The position numbers and the translations under genes are program-made. Of a stretch of DNA of 6,439 nucleotides, positions 138 through 6,401 are shown one piece after another. The DNA is from a virus (Duplodnaviria > Heunggongvirae > Uroviricota > Caudoviricetes): IMG/VR virus record IMGVR_UViG_2695420380_000009. One strand, written 5' to 3'. The notes below the pieces were generated by a model, which was not told where the DNA came from, made no database searches, and worked only from the letters and a program-made list of their open reading frames with translations. The first letter of the stretch is position 1. Every line of letters starts with the position of its first letter.

Positions 138-1529
138 ATGACAACACCAGTCTGGCGTAATGATGACCTGGAAGGCGCTGTCATTGGCGCATTCTTTCTG
201 CGTGGGGCAGATCATGAAGTGATGGATATTCTGATCACACTACCGGCGGACATTTTTTCTGTACGAGCGTATCGGGATATCTACACAGGCATCTGCAGAC
301 AGGCCCGTGTTTCAGGAGTGATTGACCCCGTGCTGTTGTGTAATGAGATGCCGGAACTTGCCCCGGTGATTACTGATACCGGGCGTAAAACCTGGGTGAA
401 GTCTTCACTGGAGCACTATGTTGCAGCGTTGCGGCGCAATGCCGCACTGCGCGATGCAGAAAAAACACTGAATGAGGCGCTGCAGAAATTACGTGATGCG
501 CATACCTGTGAAGCAGCTGAAGATGCCCTGAAGGATGCGCAGAACATGATGGTCACACTGTCGACAGGAAAGGGCGTCATTCAGCCGGTACATATTGATG
601 ATGTGCTTCCGGAAGTGGTTGAGCGTGTTGAATGCCGGAATCAGGGGCTGGAGAAATCCAGGACGTTGATGACCGGTATTGATGAACTGGACGCAAAAAC
701 AGGCGGTATGGAGCCCGGAGACCTGGTATTCATTGCCGCCCGTCCTTCGATGGGGAAAACCGAACTTGCGCTGGACATCATCGACAAGGTGACTGAGCAG
801 GGGCATGGTGTGCTTCTGTTCACCATGGAGATGGCGAACATCCAGATTGGTGAACGTATGGTGTCTGCGGCTGGAGGGATGCCAGTATCACGCCTGAAAT
901 CTGTGGCTCACTTTGAAGATGAAGACTGGGCGCGTTTCTCACAAGGGGTGGGGCGGATGACCGGGCGCAATATCTGGATGGTGGACCAGGCGAACCTGAC
1001 CATTGATGAGATATGCGCAACAACGAAACACCATCTGATTAAACATCCGGAAACGGCGCTGGTGGTGGTTGATTATCTCGGGCTGATAAAAACCCGAACC
1101 ACGGGGCGTCATGACCTTGCCGTGGGTGAAATCTCAAAGGGGCTTAAAGGCCTGGCAAAATCCGGTGGTTTTCCGTTGATTGCGCTGAGCCAGCTCTCCC
1201 GCGGTGTGGAGTCCAGACCCAATAAACGTCCCATGAACTCAGACCTGAAAAATTCCGGAGAAATAGAGGCGGATGCAGACATCATTCTGATGCTTTACAG
1301 GGATGAAGTGTACAACCCGGATACACAGGCTACAGGCATAGCAGAAATTAATATCACGAAACAACGTAACGGTTCTCTGGGGACGATTTACCGGCGTTTT
1401 TATAACGGACATTTTCTGCCTGTGGACCAGGAAAGCGCACAGGTTCTTTCCACCCCAATGCGGCAGCCCCAGCCGCGCAGATACAGCAATACACGTACCG
1501 ACAGCAGTAAGATGGAGCGTTTCTTTTGA
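138..1529 (+). CDS. Replicative DNA helicase, DnaB family (phage P22 gp12-like). Start is ambiguous: ATG at 138 is preceded by AGAGG; the ORF track starts at an in-frame TTG at 117, and the frame stays open to the window edge.
   Basis: Long ORF of about 463-470 aa. Walker A-like motif ARPSMGKTE in a DnaB-like context (GIDELDAKTGGMEPGDLVFIAARPSMGKTELALDI), followed by LVVVDYLGLI and IALSQLSR motifs typical of the DnaB RecA-like C-terminal domain. Stop TGA at 1527-1529 overlaps the next ORF's start. Confidence 0.85.
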   Translation: MTTPVWRNDDLEGAVIGAFFLRGADHEVMDILITLPADIFSVRAYRDIYTGICRQARVSGVIDPVLLCNEMPELAPVITDTGRKTWVKSSLEHYVAALRRNAALRDAEKTLNEALQKLRDAHTCEAAEDALKDAQNMMVTLSTGKGVIQPVHIDDVLPEVVERVECRNQGLEKSRTLMTGIDELDAKTGGMEPGDLVFIAARPSMGKTELALDIIDKVTEQGHGVLLFTMEMANIQIGERMVSAAGGMPVSRLKSVAHFEDEDWARFSQGVGRMTGRNIWMVDQANLTIDEICATTKHHLIKHPETALVVVDYLGLIKTRTTGRHDLAVGEISKGLKGLAKSGGFPLIALSQLSRGVESRPNKRPMNSDLKNSGEIEADADIILMLYRDEVYNPDTQATGIAEINITKQRNGSLGTIYRRFYNGHFLPVDQESAQVLSTPMRQPQPRRYSNTRTDSSKMERFF

Positions 1530-1783
1530 ACAACCAGACAATGACTTTTACCCCTGAACAATTGCGTAAACACGCGCAGGAAATGCTGCGTCATGCTGAA
1601 CAACTCGAAAAAACGGGCATAACAAAAGACGCTATCCGTAAAGATATGGTACCCGCGCTTCGGGAACTGATGCAGGCGAAGCATCGCGCACAGAAAGCAG
1701 TAGATGAGCTGGTGGACTGTGTGGCAGAGCTGGAAACCAGAGTCGGAAAGTTTGAAAAACTGGTGCAGGAGGTGCTGCGCTGA
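1526..1783 (+). CDS. Small hypothetical protein (85 aa, predicted helical, charged), allele 1. Conserved position between the replication genes and rusA.
   Basis: ORF with a TTG start at 1526 preceded by GGAG at 1514-1517 (8-nt spacing); alternative ATG at 1541. The start overlaps the helicase stop and the stop overlaps the downstream ATG. Two further diverged copies in the window (2148-2405 and 2600-2759) differ mainly by transitions at synonymous sites, indicating a real coding sequence under purifying selection. Confidence 0.6.
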   Translation: MNNQTMTFTPEQLRKHAQEMLRHAEQLEKTGITKDAIRKDMVPALRELMQAKHRAQKAVDELVDCVAELETRVGKFEKLVQEVLR

Positions 1784-1904
1784 TGCGCCATGAGTTTATT
1801 TTACCTTATCCGCCGACGGTGAATACTTACTGGCGACGTCGTGACAACACATATTTTGTATCAAAAGCCGGTGAGCGTTATCGCCGGGATGTGGCGCTTA
1901 TTGT
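1783..1904 (+). pseudogene. rusA: Truncated rusA 5' fragment (first about 40 codons), ending at a single ambiguous base at 1905.
   Basis: Translation MRHEFILPYPPTVNTYWRRRDNTYFVSKAGERYRRDVALI matches the N-terminus of the full rusA at 2759-3133, then switches abruptly at 'n' 1905 into helicase 3' sequence. Confidence 0.6.
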
Positions 1905-1905
1905 N

Positions 1906-2151
1906 ATTCTGATGCTTTACAGGGATGAAGTGTACAACCCGGATACACAGGCTACAGGCATAGCAGAAATTAATATCACGAAACAACGTAACGGTTCTCT
2001 GGGGACGATTTACCGGCGTTTTTATAACGGACATTTTCTGCCTGTGGACCAGGAAAGCGCACAGGTTCTTTCCACCCCAATGCGGCAGCCCCAGCCGCGC
2101 AGATACAGCAATACACGTACCGACAGCAGTAAGATGGAGCGTTTCTTTTGA
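1906..2151 (+). pseudogene. Duplicate of the 3' end of the helicase gene (246 bp, apparently 100% identical to 1284-1529), fused in frame to the rusA fragment upstream.
   Basis: By-eye comparison shows 1906-2151 is identical to 1284-1529, including the stop. The ORF track gives a chimeric ORF 1783-2151 whose C-terminal 82 aa equal the helicase C-terminus. Confidence 0.6.
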
Positions 2152-2405
2152 ACAACCAGACAATGACTTTTACCTCTGAACAATTGCGTAAACACGCGCA
2201 GGAAATGTTGCGACAGGCGGAACAACTGGAAAAAACAGGTGTAACAAAAGATGCCATTCGTCGGGATATGGTGCCAGCGCTCAGGGAACTGATGCAGGCG
2301 AAACATCGCGCACAAAAAGCGGTGGATGAGCTCGTTGATTGTGTGGCAGAGCTGGAAACCAAAGTTGGAAAGTTTGAAAAAATGGTGCAGGAGGTGCTGC
2401 GCTGA
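2148..2405 (+). CDS. Small hypothetical protein (85 aa), allele 2, a diverged copy of 1526-1783.
   Basis: Same length and same overlapping stop/start architecture as allele 1. Six amino-acid differences (P10S, H23Q, I32V, K38R, R72K, L79M) plus multiple synonymous changes. Confidence 0.55.
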   Translation: MNNQTMTFTSEQLRKHAQEMLRQAEQLEKTGVTKDAIRRDMVPALRELMQAKHRAQKAVDELVDCVAELETKVGKFEKMVQEVLR

Positions 2406-2598
2406 TGCGCCATGAGTTTATTTTACCTTATCCGCCGACGGTGAATACTTACTGGCGACGTCGTGACAACACATATTTTGTATCAAAAGCCGGTGAGCGT
2501 TATCGCCGGGATGTGGCGCTTATTGTCCGTCAGCAGCGACTGAAATTAAGCCTGTCCGGAAGACTGGCGATAAAGATTATTGCAGAGCCACCGGATAA
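2405..2598 (+). pseudogene. rusA: Truncated rusA 5' fragment, copy 2 (about 64 codons), ending at a single ambiguous base at 2599.
   Basis: Translation MRHEFILPYPPTVNTYWRRRDNTYFVSKAGERYRRDVALIVRQQRLKLSLSGRLAIKIIAEPPD matches the rusA N-terminus, then the sequence jumps at 'n' 2599 into the middle of the small ORF, out of frame. Confidence 0.6.
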
Positions 2599-2599
2599 N

Positions 2600-2759
2600 A
2601 AAAGATGCCATTCGTCGGGATATGGTGCCAGCGCTCAGGGAACTGATGCAGGCGAAACATCGCGCACAAAAAGCGGTGGATGAGCTCGTTGATTGTGTGG
2701 CAGAGCTGGAAACCAAAGTTGGAAAGTTTGAAAAACTGGTGCAGGAGGTGCTGCGCTGA
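2600..2759 (+). pseudogene. 3' fragment of the small hypothetical ORF (copy 3, encoding the final 53 codons from KDAIRRDMVPALRELMQ to EVLR).
   Basis: Near-identical to the 3' part of allele 2 (one visible difference, aaaaactggtg versus aaaaaatggtg). It lacks a 5' end and start codon. Confidence 0.5.
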
Positions 2760-3133
2760 TGCGCCATGAGTTTATTTTACCTTATCCGCCGACGGTGAAT
2801 ACTTACTGGCGACGTCGTGGCAGCACATATTTTGTATCAAAAGTTGGTGAGCGTTATCGCCGTGATGTGACGCTAATTGTTCGCCAGCAGCGGCTGAAAT
2901 TAAACCTGTCCGGAAGGCTGGCGATAAAGATTATTGCAGAGCCACCGGATAAGCGCCGTCGTGACCTGGACAATATCCTGAAAGCACCACTGGATGCACT
3001 GACACATGCGGGAGTGTTAATGGACGATGAGCAGTTTGATGAAATCAATATCGTTCGTGGTCAGCCAGTATCTGGTGGACGTCTGGGGGTGAAGATTTAC
3101 CCCATAATGCATGAAGAGCAGGTCAAAAAATGA
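2759..3133 (+). CDS. rusA: Crossover junction endodeoxyribonuclease RusA (Holliday junction resolvase), the full-length copy of 124 aa.
   Basis: ATG at 2759 preceded by AGGAGG at 2743-2748. The protein shows family features as I recall them for E. coli RusA: N-terminal PYPPTVNTYW-type motif and the acidic catalytic region KRRRDLDNILKAPLDALTHAGVLMDDEQ. Start overlaps the upstream stop and the stop overlaps the Q start (ATGA). Confidence 0.85.
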   Translation: MRHEFILPYPPTVNTYWRRRGSTYFVSKVGERYRRDVTLIVRQQRLKLNLSGRLAIKIIAEPPDKRRRDLDNILKAPLDALTHAGVLMDDEQFDEINIVRGQPVSGGRLGVKIYPIMHEEQVKK

Positions 3134-4343
3134 AACTGGAAGATTTACCGAAATACTACTCCCCAAAATCCCCTTGCCTGACCGATGCATCGGNNNNNNN
3201 NNNNNNNNNNNNNNNNNNNNNNNNNNNNNNNNNNNNNNNNNNNNNNNNNNNNNNNNCCGATGCATCGGCCTCAACGTCAAAAGATGCGCTGAGTATCACT
3301 GATGTGATGGCCGCGCAGGGCATGACACAGAATCGGGCTGAGATGGGGTTTTCTGCGTTCCTGGGGAAAATGGGCATCAGTATGAATGACAGAGAGCGGG
3401 CAACAGAATTGCTGACAGAATATGCACTCAGTCNNNNNNNNNNNNNNNNNNNNNNNNNNNNNNNNNNNNNNNNNNNNNNNNNNNNNNNNNNNNNNNNNNN
3501 NNNNNNNNNNNNNNNNNNNNNNNNNNNNNNNNNNNNNNNNNNNNNNNNNNNNNNNNNNNNNNNNNNNNNNNNNNNNNNNNNNNNNNNNNNNNNNNNNNGT
3601 GTGATCGCGTGGCGGCGTTAAGAAAACTCCCGGCAGAAATAAAACCGGCAGTGATGCGTATTATGGCTTCGTATGCGTTTGAAGATTATGCCCGTAGCGC
3701 GGCGAGCAAAAAACAGTGCCCCTGCTGTCACGGAAAAAAATTTATTGAAAGCGAGGTTTTTACAAACAAGANNNNNNNNNNNCCGGCAGAAATAAAACCG
3801 GTAGTGATGCGCATTATGGCTTCGTACGCTTTTGAGGATTATGCCCGCAGCGCAGCGAGTAAAAAGCAGTGCCCTTGTTGCTATGGGGAAAAATTTATTG
3901 AAAGCGTAGTTTTTACAAACAAGGTCCAGTATCCGGATGGTAAGCCGCCGGTATGGGCAAAGTGTACGAAAGGTGTGTATCCGTCTTACTGGGAAGAATG
4001 GAAAAAAGTCAGGGAGGTGGTAAAAGTTGCCTGTCCGGAGTGTGGCGGAAAGGGTGAGGTTTCCACCGCCTGTAAGGATTGCCGTGGGCGTGGTGTCGCC
4101 ATTCATCGTGAAGAGTCGGTAAAACGTGGTATGCCTGTTATCAGAGACTGCCAGCGTTGTGGTGGTCGTGGCTATGAAAGACTACCATCAACGGAGGCAT
4201 TTAATGCTATATGCGAGGTGACAAACCAGATAACACGCGCGTCATGGGAAAAAACAGTTAAGAAATTTTATGATGCGCTGGTGACCCGGTTTGATATTGA
4301 AGAAGCATGGGCTGAGCGGCAGTTAAAAAAGGTAACTAGGTAA
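3130..4343 (+). CDS. Q: Late-gene antitermination protein Q, lambda Q family. As presented it is mosaic and not one intact ORF: the N-terminal part (3130-3433) and C-terminal part (3599-4343) are in different frames across a 165-N block.
   Basis: The N-terminal segment MKLEDLPKYYSPKSP...TDVMAAQGMTQNRAEMGFSAFLGK and the C-terminal tail ...WEKTVKKFYDALV...KKVTR resemble lambda Q as recalled from memory. Central CxxC zinc-binding motifs are present. The gene lies just upstream of a PR'-like promoter and terminator, the canonical Q position. Confidence 0.75.
3630..3923 (+). repeat. Diverged tandem duplication inside Q: two 141-bp copies (3630-3770 and 3783-3923) separated by 'a' plus 11 N, period 153 bp, in frame.
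   Basis: Direct alignment by eye shows about 16 mismatches in 141 bp, 14 of them transitions. Both copies encode PAEIKP[A/V]VMRIMASYAFEDYARSAASKKQCPCC[H/Y]G[K/E]KFIES[E/V]VFTNK. Confidence 0.7.
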
Positions 4344-4348
4344 CAAGG

Positions 4349-4395
4349 TTGATTTTTCCGGAATCTGTGGTAAATTCGTCATAACTATGGGCGTT
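4349..4395 (+). promoter_or_regulatory. PR'-like late promoter: -35 TTGATT (4349-4354), 16-bp spacer, extended -10 TGgTAAATT (4368-4376), followed by a candidate promoter-proximal pause/qut-like element (about 4377-4395).
   Basis: Sigma-70 consensus-like hexamers lie 5 nt after the Q stop. The architecture and downstream sequence cgtcataactatggg resemble lambda PR' (TTGACT-N17-TAAATT then tgactcaacgatggg) as recalled from memory. Confidence 0.6.
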
Positions 4396-4423
4396 TTATG
4401 CCTGACGTTAGAAGAGTTTCTAC

Positions 4424-4449
4424 AACCCGCCGCCGAGCGGGTTTTTTAT
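4424..4449 (+). terminator. Intrinsic terminator (tR'-like) about 40-65 nt downstream of the PR'-like start site.
   Basis: Stem aaCCCGC / GCGGGtt (5 G:C pairs plus 2 A:T pairs) with loop cgccga, followed by a T6 tract (4442-4447). Confidence 0.6.
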
Positions 4450-5043
4450 NNNNNNNNNNNNNNNNNNNNNNNNNNNNNNNNNNNNNNNNNNNNNNNNNNN
4501 NNNNNNNNNNNNNNNNNNNNNNNNNNNNNNNNNNNNNNNNNNNNNNNNNNNNNNNNNNNNNNNNNNNNNNNNNNNNNNNNNNNNNNNNNNNNNNNNNNNN
4601 NNNNNNNNNNNNNNNNNNNNNNNNNNNNNNNNNNNNNNNNNNNNNNNNNNNNNNNNNNNNNNNNNNNNNNNNNNNNNNNNNNNNNNNNNNNNNNNNNNNN
4701 NNNNNNNNNNNNNNNNNNNNNNNNNNNNNNNNNNNNNNNNNNNNNNNNNNNNNNNNNNNNNNNNNNNNNNNNNNNNNNNNNNNNNNNNNNNNNNNNNNNN
4801 NNNNNNNNNNNNNNNNNNNNNNNNNNNNNNNNNNNNNNNNNNNNNNNNNNNNNNNNNNNNNNNNNNNNNNNNNNNNNNNNNNNNNNNNNNNNNNNNNNNN
4901 NNNNNNNNNNNNNNNNNNNNNNNNNNNNNNNNNNNNNNNNNNNNNNNNNNNNNNNNNNNNNNNNNNNNNNNNNNNNNNNNNNNNNNNNNNNNNNNNNNNN
5001 NNNNNNNNNNATGCGTTGGGTTCACAAGCAAACCTCAGGCCCA

Positions 5044-5062
5044 CTGCTTTGCGCAAAAGCAG
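5044..5062 (+). promoter_or_regulatory. Perfect 7-bp inverted repeat, CTGCTTT-gcgca-AAAGCAG, 33 bp upstream of the methyltransferase start. Candidate operator or RNA hairpin; function unknown.
   Basis: Read directly from the sequence. There is no T-tract after it, so it is not a canonical intrinsic terminator. Confidence 0.3.
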
Positions 5063-5094
5063 AATGAGCCTATCAGAGACAGGCTTAATGATCC

Positions 5095-6288
5095 ATGCTT
5101 AATACTGTAAAAATATCCAGTTGTGAGTTAATCAACGCCGACTGCCTGGAATTTATCCGGTCGTTACCCGAAAATTCTGTTGACCTGATAGTCACGGACC
5201 CGCCGTACTTTAAAGTGAAGCCTGAGGGCTGGGATAACCAGTGGAAGGGCGACGATGATTACCTGAAGTGGCTGGACCAGTGTCTGGCGCAGTTCTGGCG
5301 GGTGCTGAAACCTGCCGGAAGTCTTTACCTGTTCTGTGGTCATCGCCTGGCATCTGATATCGAAATCATGATGCGTGAACGCTTCAGTGTGCTGAACCAT
5401 ATTATCTGGGCGAAGCCGTCCGGACGCTGGAACGGNNNNNNNNNNNNNNNNNNNNNNNNNNNNNNNNNNNNNNNNNNNNNNNNNNNNNNNNNNNNNNNNN
5501 NNNNNNNNNNNNNNNNNNNNCGGGCGTATTTCCCCGCCACAGAGCGCATTCTGTTCGCGGAACATTATCAGGGGCCGTATCGTCCGAAAGATGCCGGGTA
5601 TNNNNNNNNNNNNNNNNNNNNNNNNNNNNNNNNNNNNNNNNNNNNNNNNNNNNNNNNNNNNNNNNNNNNNNNNNNNNNNNNNNNNNNNNNNNNNNNNNNN
5701 NNNNNNNNNNNNNNNNNNNNNNNNNNNNNNNNNNNNNNNNNNNNNNNNNNNNNNNNNNNNNNNNNNNNNNNNNNNNNNNNNNNNNNNNNNNNNNNNNNNN
5801 NNNNNNNNNNNNNNNNNNNNNNNNNNNNNNNNNNNNNNNNNNNNNNNNNNNNNNNNNNNNNNNNNNNNNNNNNNNNNNNNNNNNNNNNNNNNNNNNNNNN
5901 NNNNNNNNNNNNNNNNNNNNNNNNNNNNNNNNNNNNNNNNNNNNNNNNNNNNNNNNNNNNNNNNNNNNNNNNNNNNNNNNNNNNNNNNNNNNNNNNNNNN
6001 NNNNNNNNNNNGACGGTGCAGGTGCCGTATACCGATGTGTGGACGCATAAACCGGTGCAGTTCTATCCCGGGAAACATCCGTGCGAAAAACCGGCAGAAA
6101 TGCTGCAGCAGATAATCAGCGCTAGCAGTCGTCCGGGTGACCTGATTGCAGATTTTTTCATGGGGTTGGGTTCGACAGTGAAAGCGGCACTGGCGCTCGG
6201 GCGTCGTGCAATTGGCGTTGAGCTGGAGACTGAACGTTTTGAGCAGACGGTTCGGGAAGTACAGGATTTAGTCAGCCAGAACGGATGA
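5095..6288 (+). CDS. DNA methyltransferase, beta-class amino-MTase (N6-adenine or N4-cytosine; PF01555-like). The central region is N-masked (5436-5520 and 5602-6011).
   Basis: N-terminal catalytic motif IV DLIVTDPPY (a DPPY tetrapeptide) and C-terminal AdoMet-binding motif I region HPCEKPAEMLQQIISASSRPGDLIADFFMGLGSTVKAALALGRRAIGVE. Motif IV preceding motif I is the beta-class order. The frame is preserved across both masked blocks (visible segments at 5095-5435, 5521-5601 and 6012-6288 share one frame). Confidence 0.8.
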   Translation: MLNTVKISSCELINADCLEFIRSLPENSVDLIVTDPPYFKVKPEGWDNQWKGDDDYLKWLDQCLAQFWRVLKPAGSLYLFCGHRLASDIEIMMRERFSVLNHIIWAKPSGRWNXXXXXXXXXXXXXXXXXXXXXXXXXXXXXRAYFPATERILFAEHYQGPYRPKDAGYXXXXXXXXXXXXXXXXXXXXXXXXXXXXXXXXXXXXXXXXXXXXXXXXXXXXXXXXXXXXXXXXXXXXXXXXXXXXXXXXXXXXXXXXXXXXXXXXXXXXXXXXXXXXXXXXXXXXXXXXXXXXXXXXXXXXXXXXXTVQVPYTDVWTHKPVQFYPGKHPCEKPAEMLQQIISASSRPGDLIADFFMGLGSTVKAALALGRRAIGVELETERFEQTVREVQDLVSQNG

Positions 6289-6328: not shown

Positions 6329-6401
6329 GGCCCTTTAGCTCAGTGGTGAGAGCGAGCGACTCATAATCGCCAGGTCGCTGGTTCAAGTCCAGCAAGGGTG
6401 A
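6329..6401 (+). tRNA. ileZ: tRNA with anticodon CAU, closely resembling E. coli tRNA-Ile2 (ileX/ileY type, the lysidine-modified AUA reader); ileZ-like phage-borne tRNA. No encoded CCA.
   Basis: Manual cloverleaf: acceptor GGCCCTT, D-arm GCTC-AGTGGTGA-GAGC, anticodon arm AGCGA-CTCATAA-TCGCC, variable loop AGGTC, T-arm GCTGG-TTCAAGT-CCAGC, 3' acceptor AAGGGTG, discriminator A. The T-arm is identical and the D-arm nearly identical to E. coli ileX as I recall it. Irregularities: G1-G72 mismatch, G2-U71 wobble, A27-C43 mismatch. Confidence 0.7.

Follow-up and report, generated by a model that had tools for sequence, protein, structure and literature searches.

The 153-nt tandem duplication printed inside the antiterminator gene Q of the 6,439-nt viral record analysed here (the whole stretch is called the window below) is best explained as an artefact of scaffolding in the draft assembly of an E. 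coli genome with several related lambdoid prophages, an explanation to which we give a probability of about 0.96. The in-frame 51-codon repeat in Q is not a real feature. The evidence comprises a run of N at the junction between the copies, overlapping coordinates of the two flanks on reference genomes, the identity of each flank to a different Q allele, the recurrence of the same pattern at other gaps of the window, and the absence of the arrangement elsewhere.

A repeat search of the window returned a direct repeat at 3630-3770 and 3783-3923, whose copies start 153 nt apart and are 87% identical. The same 153-nt array is absent from the TRF output for the window. Counted base by base, the copies occupy 3630-3771 and 3783-3924 on the + strand, 142 nt each, the final base (A/G) aligning as well. 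They differ at 19 positions, which corresponds to an identity of 86.6% (87% over 141 nt); the initial annotation had described two 141-bp copies at about 89% identity, and both values are corrected here. Of the 19 differences, which it described as almost only transitions, 17 are transitions and 2 are transversions. At the codon level, 12 changes between the copies are synonymous and 4 are non-synonymous (A/V, H/Y, K/E, E/V). The similarity of the two copies is far beyond chance.

A tandem repeat of period 153 at 3630-3923 is thus present as a string of letters, but no sequenced DNA joins its two halves. The 12-nt separation previously reported is made of A3771, which belongs to copy 1, and of 11 N at 3772-3782, whose nature had gone unregistered. 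Because the spacer is N, nothing that was sequenced connects copy 1 to copy 2; continuous sequenced DNA running from one copy into the other was looked for at this junction and was not found, positions 3772-3782 being all N. The in-frame period is a matter of arithmetic (142 + 11 = 153) and depends on the number of N. The preservation of the reading frame, which had been called curious, therefore stands numerically but rests on an arbitrary N count, and is a 1-in-3 coincidence without biological meaning. Moreover, the parts of Q beginning at 3130 and at 3609 are in different frames on either side of the N run at 3434-3598, as are the corresponding ORFs 3130..3621 and 3609..4343. Even apart from the repeat, the Q scaffolded in the window is not intact.

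The labelling of this gene as Q is well founded. The ORF 3609-4343 matches the Pfam family PF03589 (Antitermination protein Q) with 133.8 bits, against a gathering cut-off of 26.7, and 3130-3433 matches the N-terminal part of the same family with 52 bits. The ORF also matches the DnaJ CxxCxGxG domain, slightly under the cut-off. The natural Q protein P0002 (273 aa) is homologous to the lambda Q structures 7ubm_Q (E = 2.1e-40) and 4mo1_A (E = 2.2e-27), and matches phrog_127, 'anti-termination protein Q-like' (E = 3.6e-111). The gene is thus a Q antiterminator of the PF03589 family and a homologue of lambda Q, with an antitermination activity that is predicted from its sequence. P0002 aligns with lambda Q (207 aa) at aa 1-113 and 183-273. 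The roughly 70 aa between the aligned parts are additional and contain CxxCxGxG motifs that recall the DnaJ zinc-finger domain (PF00684, 31.7 bits for a cut-off of 32.7; TIGR02349, region 138-197). The C-terminal part of the natural Q protein is encoded in the window at 3925-4343.

In annotated complete genomes, the natural Q gene is single-copy and measures 822 nt (273 aa). It follows rusA, closes the nin region and precedes the lysis genes. We used two reference loci, L001 from E. coli O157:H7 PV15-279 for allele A and L002 from FDAARGOS_944 for allele B. The gene order is RusA, Q, methyltransferase and tRNA in L001, and helicase, 85-aa ORF, RusA, Q, tRNA, holin and lysozyme in L002. At 6329-6401 the window has a tRNA-Met (CAT) gene, which closely follows the DNA methyltransferase; L001 also has a tRNA-Met behind its methyltransferase, and the annotation of L002 places a tRNA-Ile immediately behind Q. 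An IS600 insertion splits the replicative helicase gene of the L002 prophage (957-3615), whose two halves are annotated as pseudogenes.

The window was split at its N runs and the pieces were mapped to L001 and L002. The piece at 3599-3771, a contig of 173 nt on the + strand that carries gene nt 231-403 of allele A, matches L001 4501-4673 at 100% identity and L002 at 87%; it is found at 99% identity or more in 615 complete E. coli records. The piece at 3783-4449, a + strand contig of 667 nt that carries gene nt 262-822 of allele B (the stop ends at 4343) and 106 nt downstream, matches L002 4501-5167 at 99.85% identity and L001 at 85%. Whichever of the two references is used, the pieces share 142 nt of it (on L001, they map to 4501-4673 and 4532-5195). 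Copy 1 is found letter for letter in the L001 Q gene and copy 2 in the L002 Q gene, both at offset 261, so that the two cover the same gene positions (nt 262-403, aa 88-134); copy 1 carries CPCCHGKK and copy 2 CPCCYGEK at the first CxxC. The 11-N run between them is an unsequenced scaffold gap, and the true relation of its flanks is an overlap of 142 nt. In 60-nt blocks over nt 181-480, the identity between alleles A and B is 83-93%, which matches the 87% measured between the copies. The proposal that two Q alleles had been laid end to end, rather than one segment duplicated by slippage, is thereby supported. The term 'assembly collapse' that accompanied it does not apply, the arrangement being an unmerged overlap at a scaffold gap.

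The ends of the two contigs coincide with differences between the alleles. The allele B contig begins one base past a C/T difference at nt 261, and the allele A contig terminates on an A/G difference at nt 403. Breaks at such allele-discriminating sites would be expected from the branching of an assembly graph between near-identical paralogues.

Copy 1 with its flank was found in 1,121 of the 5,426 complete E. coli genomes and copy 2 with its flank in 2,496 of them, and the matches of both fall under an annotated antitermination gene in every E. coli record among the matches listed. A comparison of each copy with the Q alleles of other prophages in the same genome had been proposed in the initial annotation. 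Each copy matches a different natural allele, and there are other isolates in which these alleles lie on separate prophage contigs. In IMG genome 2681813146, allele B is on a 38-kb contig (L106, 100% identical to copy 2) and an A-type allele is on a separate 36-kb contig (L182, 98.6% identical to copy 1); two contigs of IMG genome 2698536392 (L078 and L166) stand in the same relation. Together with IMG genome 2690316276, these are isolates, other than the source of the window, that have both alleles. A 13,233-nt contig (IMGVR_UViG_2695420747_000007; loci L058 and L193) also holds both on the same strand (copy-2 type 100%, copy-1 type 98.6%). About 3.2 kb separate them, if L193 starts at about contig base 1764 as the lengths suggest, and the pieces analysed contain no N. 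Two Q genes of one genuine prophage region, or a further misjoin, would explain this arrangement.

Genomes of E. coli that contain multiple prophages, for example those of STEC O157:H7, are hard to assemble. The printed duplication could have arisen in the following way. The sequenced genome would contain several lambdoid prophages, two of which probably carry alleles A and B, and their nin-region genes would share long identical stretches broken by SNPs. A short-read assembly, which is the type that we presume, would split its contigs at branch points between the prophage copies, and the scaffolder would then chain contigs belonging to different copies. Contig A (3599-3771), which ends at gene nt 403, would have been ordered before contig B (3783-4449), which starts at gene nt 262. 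Their 142-nt overlap in Q being 13% diverged (overlaps in the window range from 10 to 13%), the contigs would have been left unmerged, and a nominal gap of 11 N inserted between them would have caused the overlap to be printed twice. The in-frame period would be a by-product of the N count. In the genome itself, allele A would run on into ...AAGATCCAGTATCC, and the copy in allele B would be preceded by ...GTTGAGAAAACTT.

The junction within the repeat is one of eight N runs in the window: 1905 (1 N), 2599 (1 N), 3194-3256 (63 N), 3434-3598 (165 N), 3772-3782 (11 N), 4450-5010 (561 N), 5436-5520 (85 N) and 5602-6011 (410 N). At every mappable run, the flanks overlap or nearly abut in reference coordinates. 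They overlap by 621 nt at 1905, by 353 nt at 2599 and by 12 nt at 3194-3256, where the window displays 1, 1 and 63 N respectively. The real gap is +1 nt for the 165 N, about +387 nt for the 561 N and +19 nt for the 85 N. As the N counts bear no relation to the real gaps, distances and reading frames across any gap of the window are unreliable. The 397-aa 'methyltransferase ORF' at 5095-6288 reads through N and is a composite too.

The two single-N joins show the same behaviour as the Q junction. The sequence that follows the N at 1905 returns to a point 621 nt earlier in the reference, and 1906-2205 repeats 1284-1583 with 100% identity; beyond the N at 2599, the reference coordinates step back by 353 nt. 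As a result, 1284-3193 (+ strand) holds three diverged copies, 90-100% identical, of one region formed by the dnaB 3' end, an ORF for an 85-aa coiled-coil-like protein and the rusA 5' region. TRF reports a period of 354 nt at 96% identity in this stretch, and the repeat search lists two families here (D1 and D2). This region occurs only once in natural loci, among them L131, L134 and L002. The triple copy is the same scaffold artefact as the Q repeat.

The 5' part of Q (gene nt 1-229; 3130-3433, + strand) is interrupted by the 63-N run at 3194-3256. A perfect 12-nt palindrome, CCGATGCATCGG, which encodes ..DAS.., is present on both sides of this run, at 3182-3193 and 3257-3268; the true relation of the flanks is thus a 12-nt overlap, and the two contigs break within or at the palindrome. 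The 165-N run at 3434-3598 stands for a single nucleotide of the reference, since 3257-3433 maps to L001 4323-4499 and 3599-3771 to L001 4501-4673, and it splits Q out of frame.

We searched for the arrangement outside the window. Among 241 related loci, 240 carry the segment once, and none of the 241 shows a 153-nt period. The exception, L093, has both alleles (each at 100%) at a spacing of 1219 nt, with a single-N join between them. The best Q alignment spans 813-823 nt in the 223 loci that contain the whole gene, and the 18 other loci are cut by a contig end. In one locus (L164, about 9030-9488), the alignment of allele A covers nt 1-459 only and ends inside the locus, which may indicate a truncated or interrupted Q. 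We also scanned for the junction itself with the pattern TTTTTACAAACAAG-N{0,30}-CCGGCAGAAATAAAACC, in which the segment end lies within 0-30 nt of the segment start. It gave no match in one-genome-per-species contigs, in IMG/VR viral contigs or in JGI metagenome contigs. The natural single-copy junctions of allele A and of allele B each gave at least 120 matches in the IMG/VR viral contigs.

At the protein level, a synthetic Q with the duplication was compared with 5.8 billion protein clusters, and no protein with this repeat appeared among the matches listed. Among the 120 matches listed, all were single-copy proteins of 277 aa or less except P0001 (337 aa). The latter comes from L255, a contig of 1814 nt in which two Q alleles are joined; it belongs to a metagenome assembly that is very fragmented, and is most likely chimeric too. 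Its join lies within 2 nt of the position homologous to the palindrome at the 63-N run, which may be a coincidence; the palindrome was considered as a cause of the L255 breakpoint and dropped, because L255 does not contain it. A megablast of the whole window against the 5,426 complete E. coli genomes gave no collinear match. The best match, with 77% coverage and 91.8% identity, spans 5.6 kb where the window measures 6.4 kb, which fits a composite window. The exact 97-nt string at 2331-2427 is absent from the one-genome-per-species contigs and present in 14 viral contigs; these contigs are only about 98% identical, and the N pattern of the window is absent from all of them.

These data bear on the possibility that the window displays a real hybrid Q with a 51-aa repeat, generated by unequal recombination between two prophage alleles, about 11 bases of the junction having failed to assemble. 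Such a protein would carry aa 88-134 twice, and with them the first CxxC of its zinc-binding region, a prospect as improbable as the recombination itself. The period is a multiple of three, the co-occurrence of both alleles in single isolates means that recombination substrates exist, and the public contig L255 does join two Q alleles without N. On the other hand, the junction of the window is unsequenced, and ...ACAAACAAGA shares no homology with CCGGCAGAAA that could drive an exchange. The reading frame is already broken at the 165-N run, and no case was found in the 241 loci, the three pattern scans or the protein database. The restart also recurs at the other mapped N runs of the 6.4-kb window, which a single event cannot explain. 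We therefore consider a recombinant Q very unlikely.

The N runs could instead be masks laid over real sequence after assembly, with some other true arrangement beneath. Several of them do exceed the true gap by far (165 N for 1 nt, 85 N for 19 nt). Yet two of the runs are one N long, and at five of them the sequence on one side duplicates that on the other, which fits scaffold joins and not masking; in public drafts of related isolates, such as L093, single-N joins are likewise followed by restarts. Masking would also leave the copies what they are, two different alleles, and we rate it a shade less probable than a recombinant gene.

A tandem duplication that arose long ago within the gene, and whose copies then diverged there through point mutations, with which the transition-biased and mostly synonymous changes would agree if the gene were under purifying selection, has next to no probability, since each copy is a different extant single-copy allele, continuous with the flank of that allele, since divergence in place would not recreate two existing alleles base for base, and since none of the relatives examined has the duplication. 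Slippage and divergence in place alike are refuted by the exact allele matches.

Unmerged contig overlap thus accounts for the repeat, and the value of this finding is limited to quality control. Short contigs from several prophage alleles, joined by N runs of arbitrary length, make up the window like a patchwork. Repeats, extended ORFs, reading frames and gene order taken from it should be disregarded unless they are confirmed on a closed genome; this holds for the triple 85-aa ORF/rusA region and for the Q of about 400 aa. No conclusion on the evolution of the Q protein or on the duplication of a zinc finger is to be drawn from it.

Finally, we compared the arrangement with its closest counterparts. 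Each half of the Q of the window matches a natural Q protein of 273 aa (WP_000762902.1, WP_000762866.1). The natural genes differ in containing the segment for aa 88-134 once and in measuring 822 nt, whereas the composite of the window measures about 1214 nt. The metagenome contig JARCCX010207601.1 (L255), which encodes P0001, shares with the window the head-to-tail join of diverged Q alleles and the over-long Q ORF. It differs in that the join has no N and a 4-nt overlap, and in that the duplicated part is 481 nt long (gene nt ~55-535) and has other boundaries; it is a single contig from a single sample. The E. coli draft scaffold L093 (IMGVR_UViG_2690316276_000009) resembles the window more closely. 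It too contains both Q alleles, and past its single N the sequence restarts about 1.2 kb back, in rusA; the restart being longer (1219 nt spacing), it reads as two Q genes and not as a repeat within one gene. This scaffold is an independent example of the same artefact. More generally, the repeat of the window shares all its traits with the unmerged-overlap scaffold gaps of short-read drafts of multi-prophage E. coli, namely N at the join, overlapping coordinates of the flanks, a different paralogous prophage allele in each flank and the recurrence of the pattern at several joins within a few kb. It does not differ from them in kind, and its one peculiarity is that the overlap and the N count add up to a multiple of 3.
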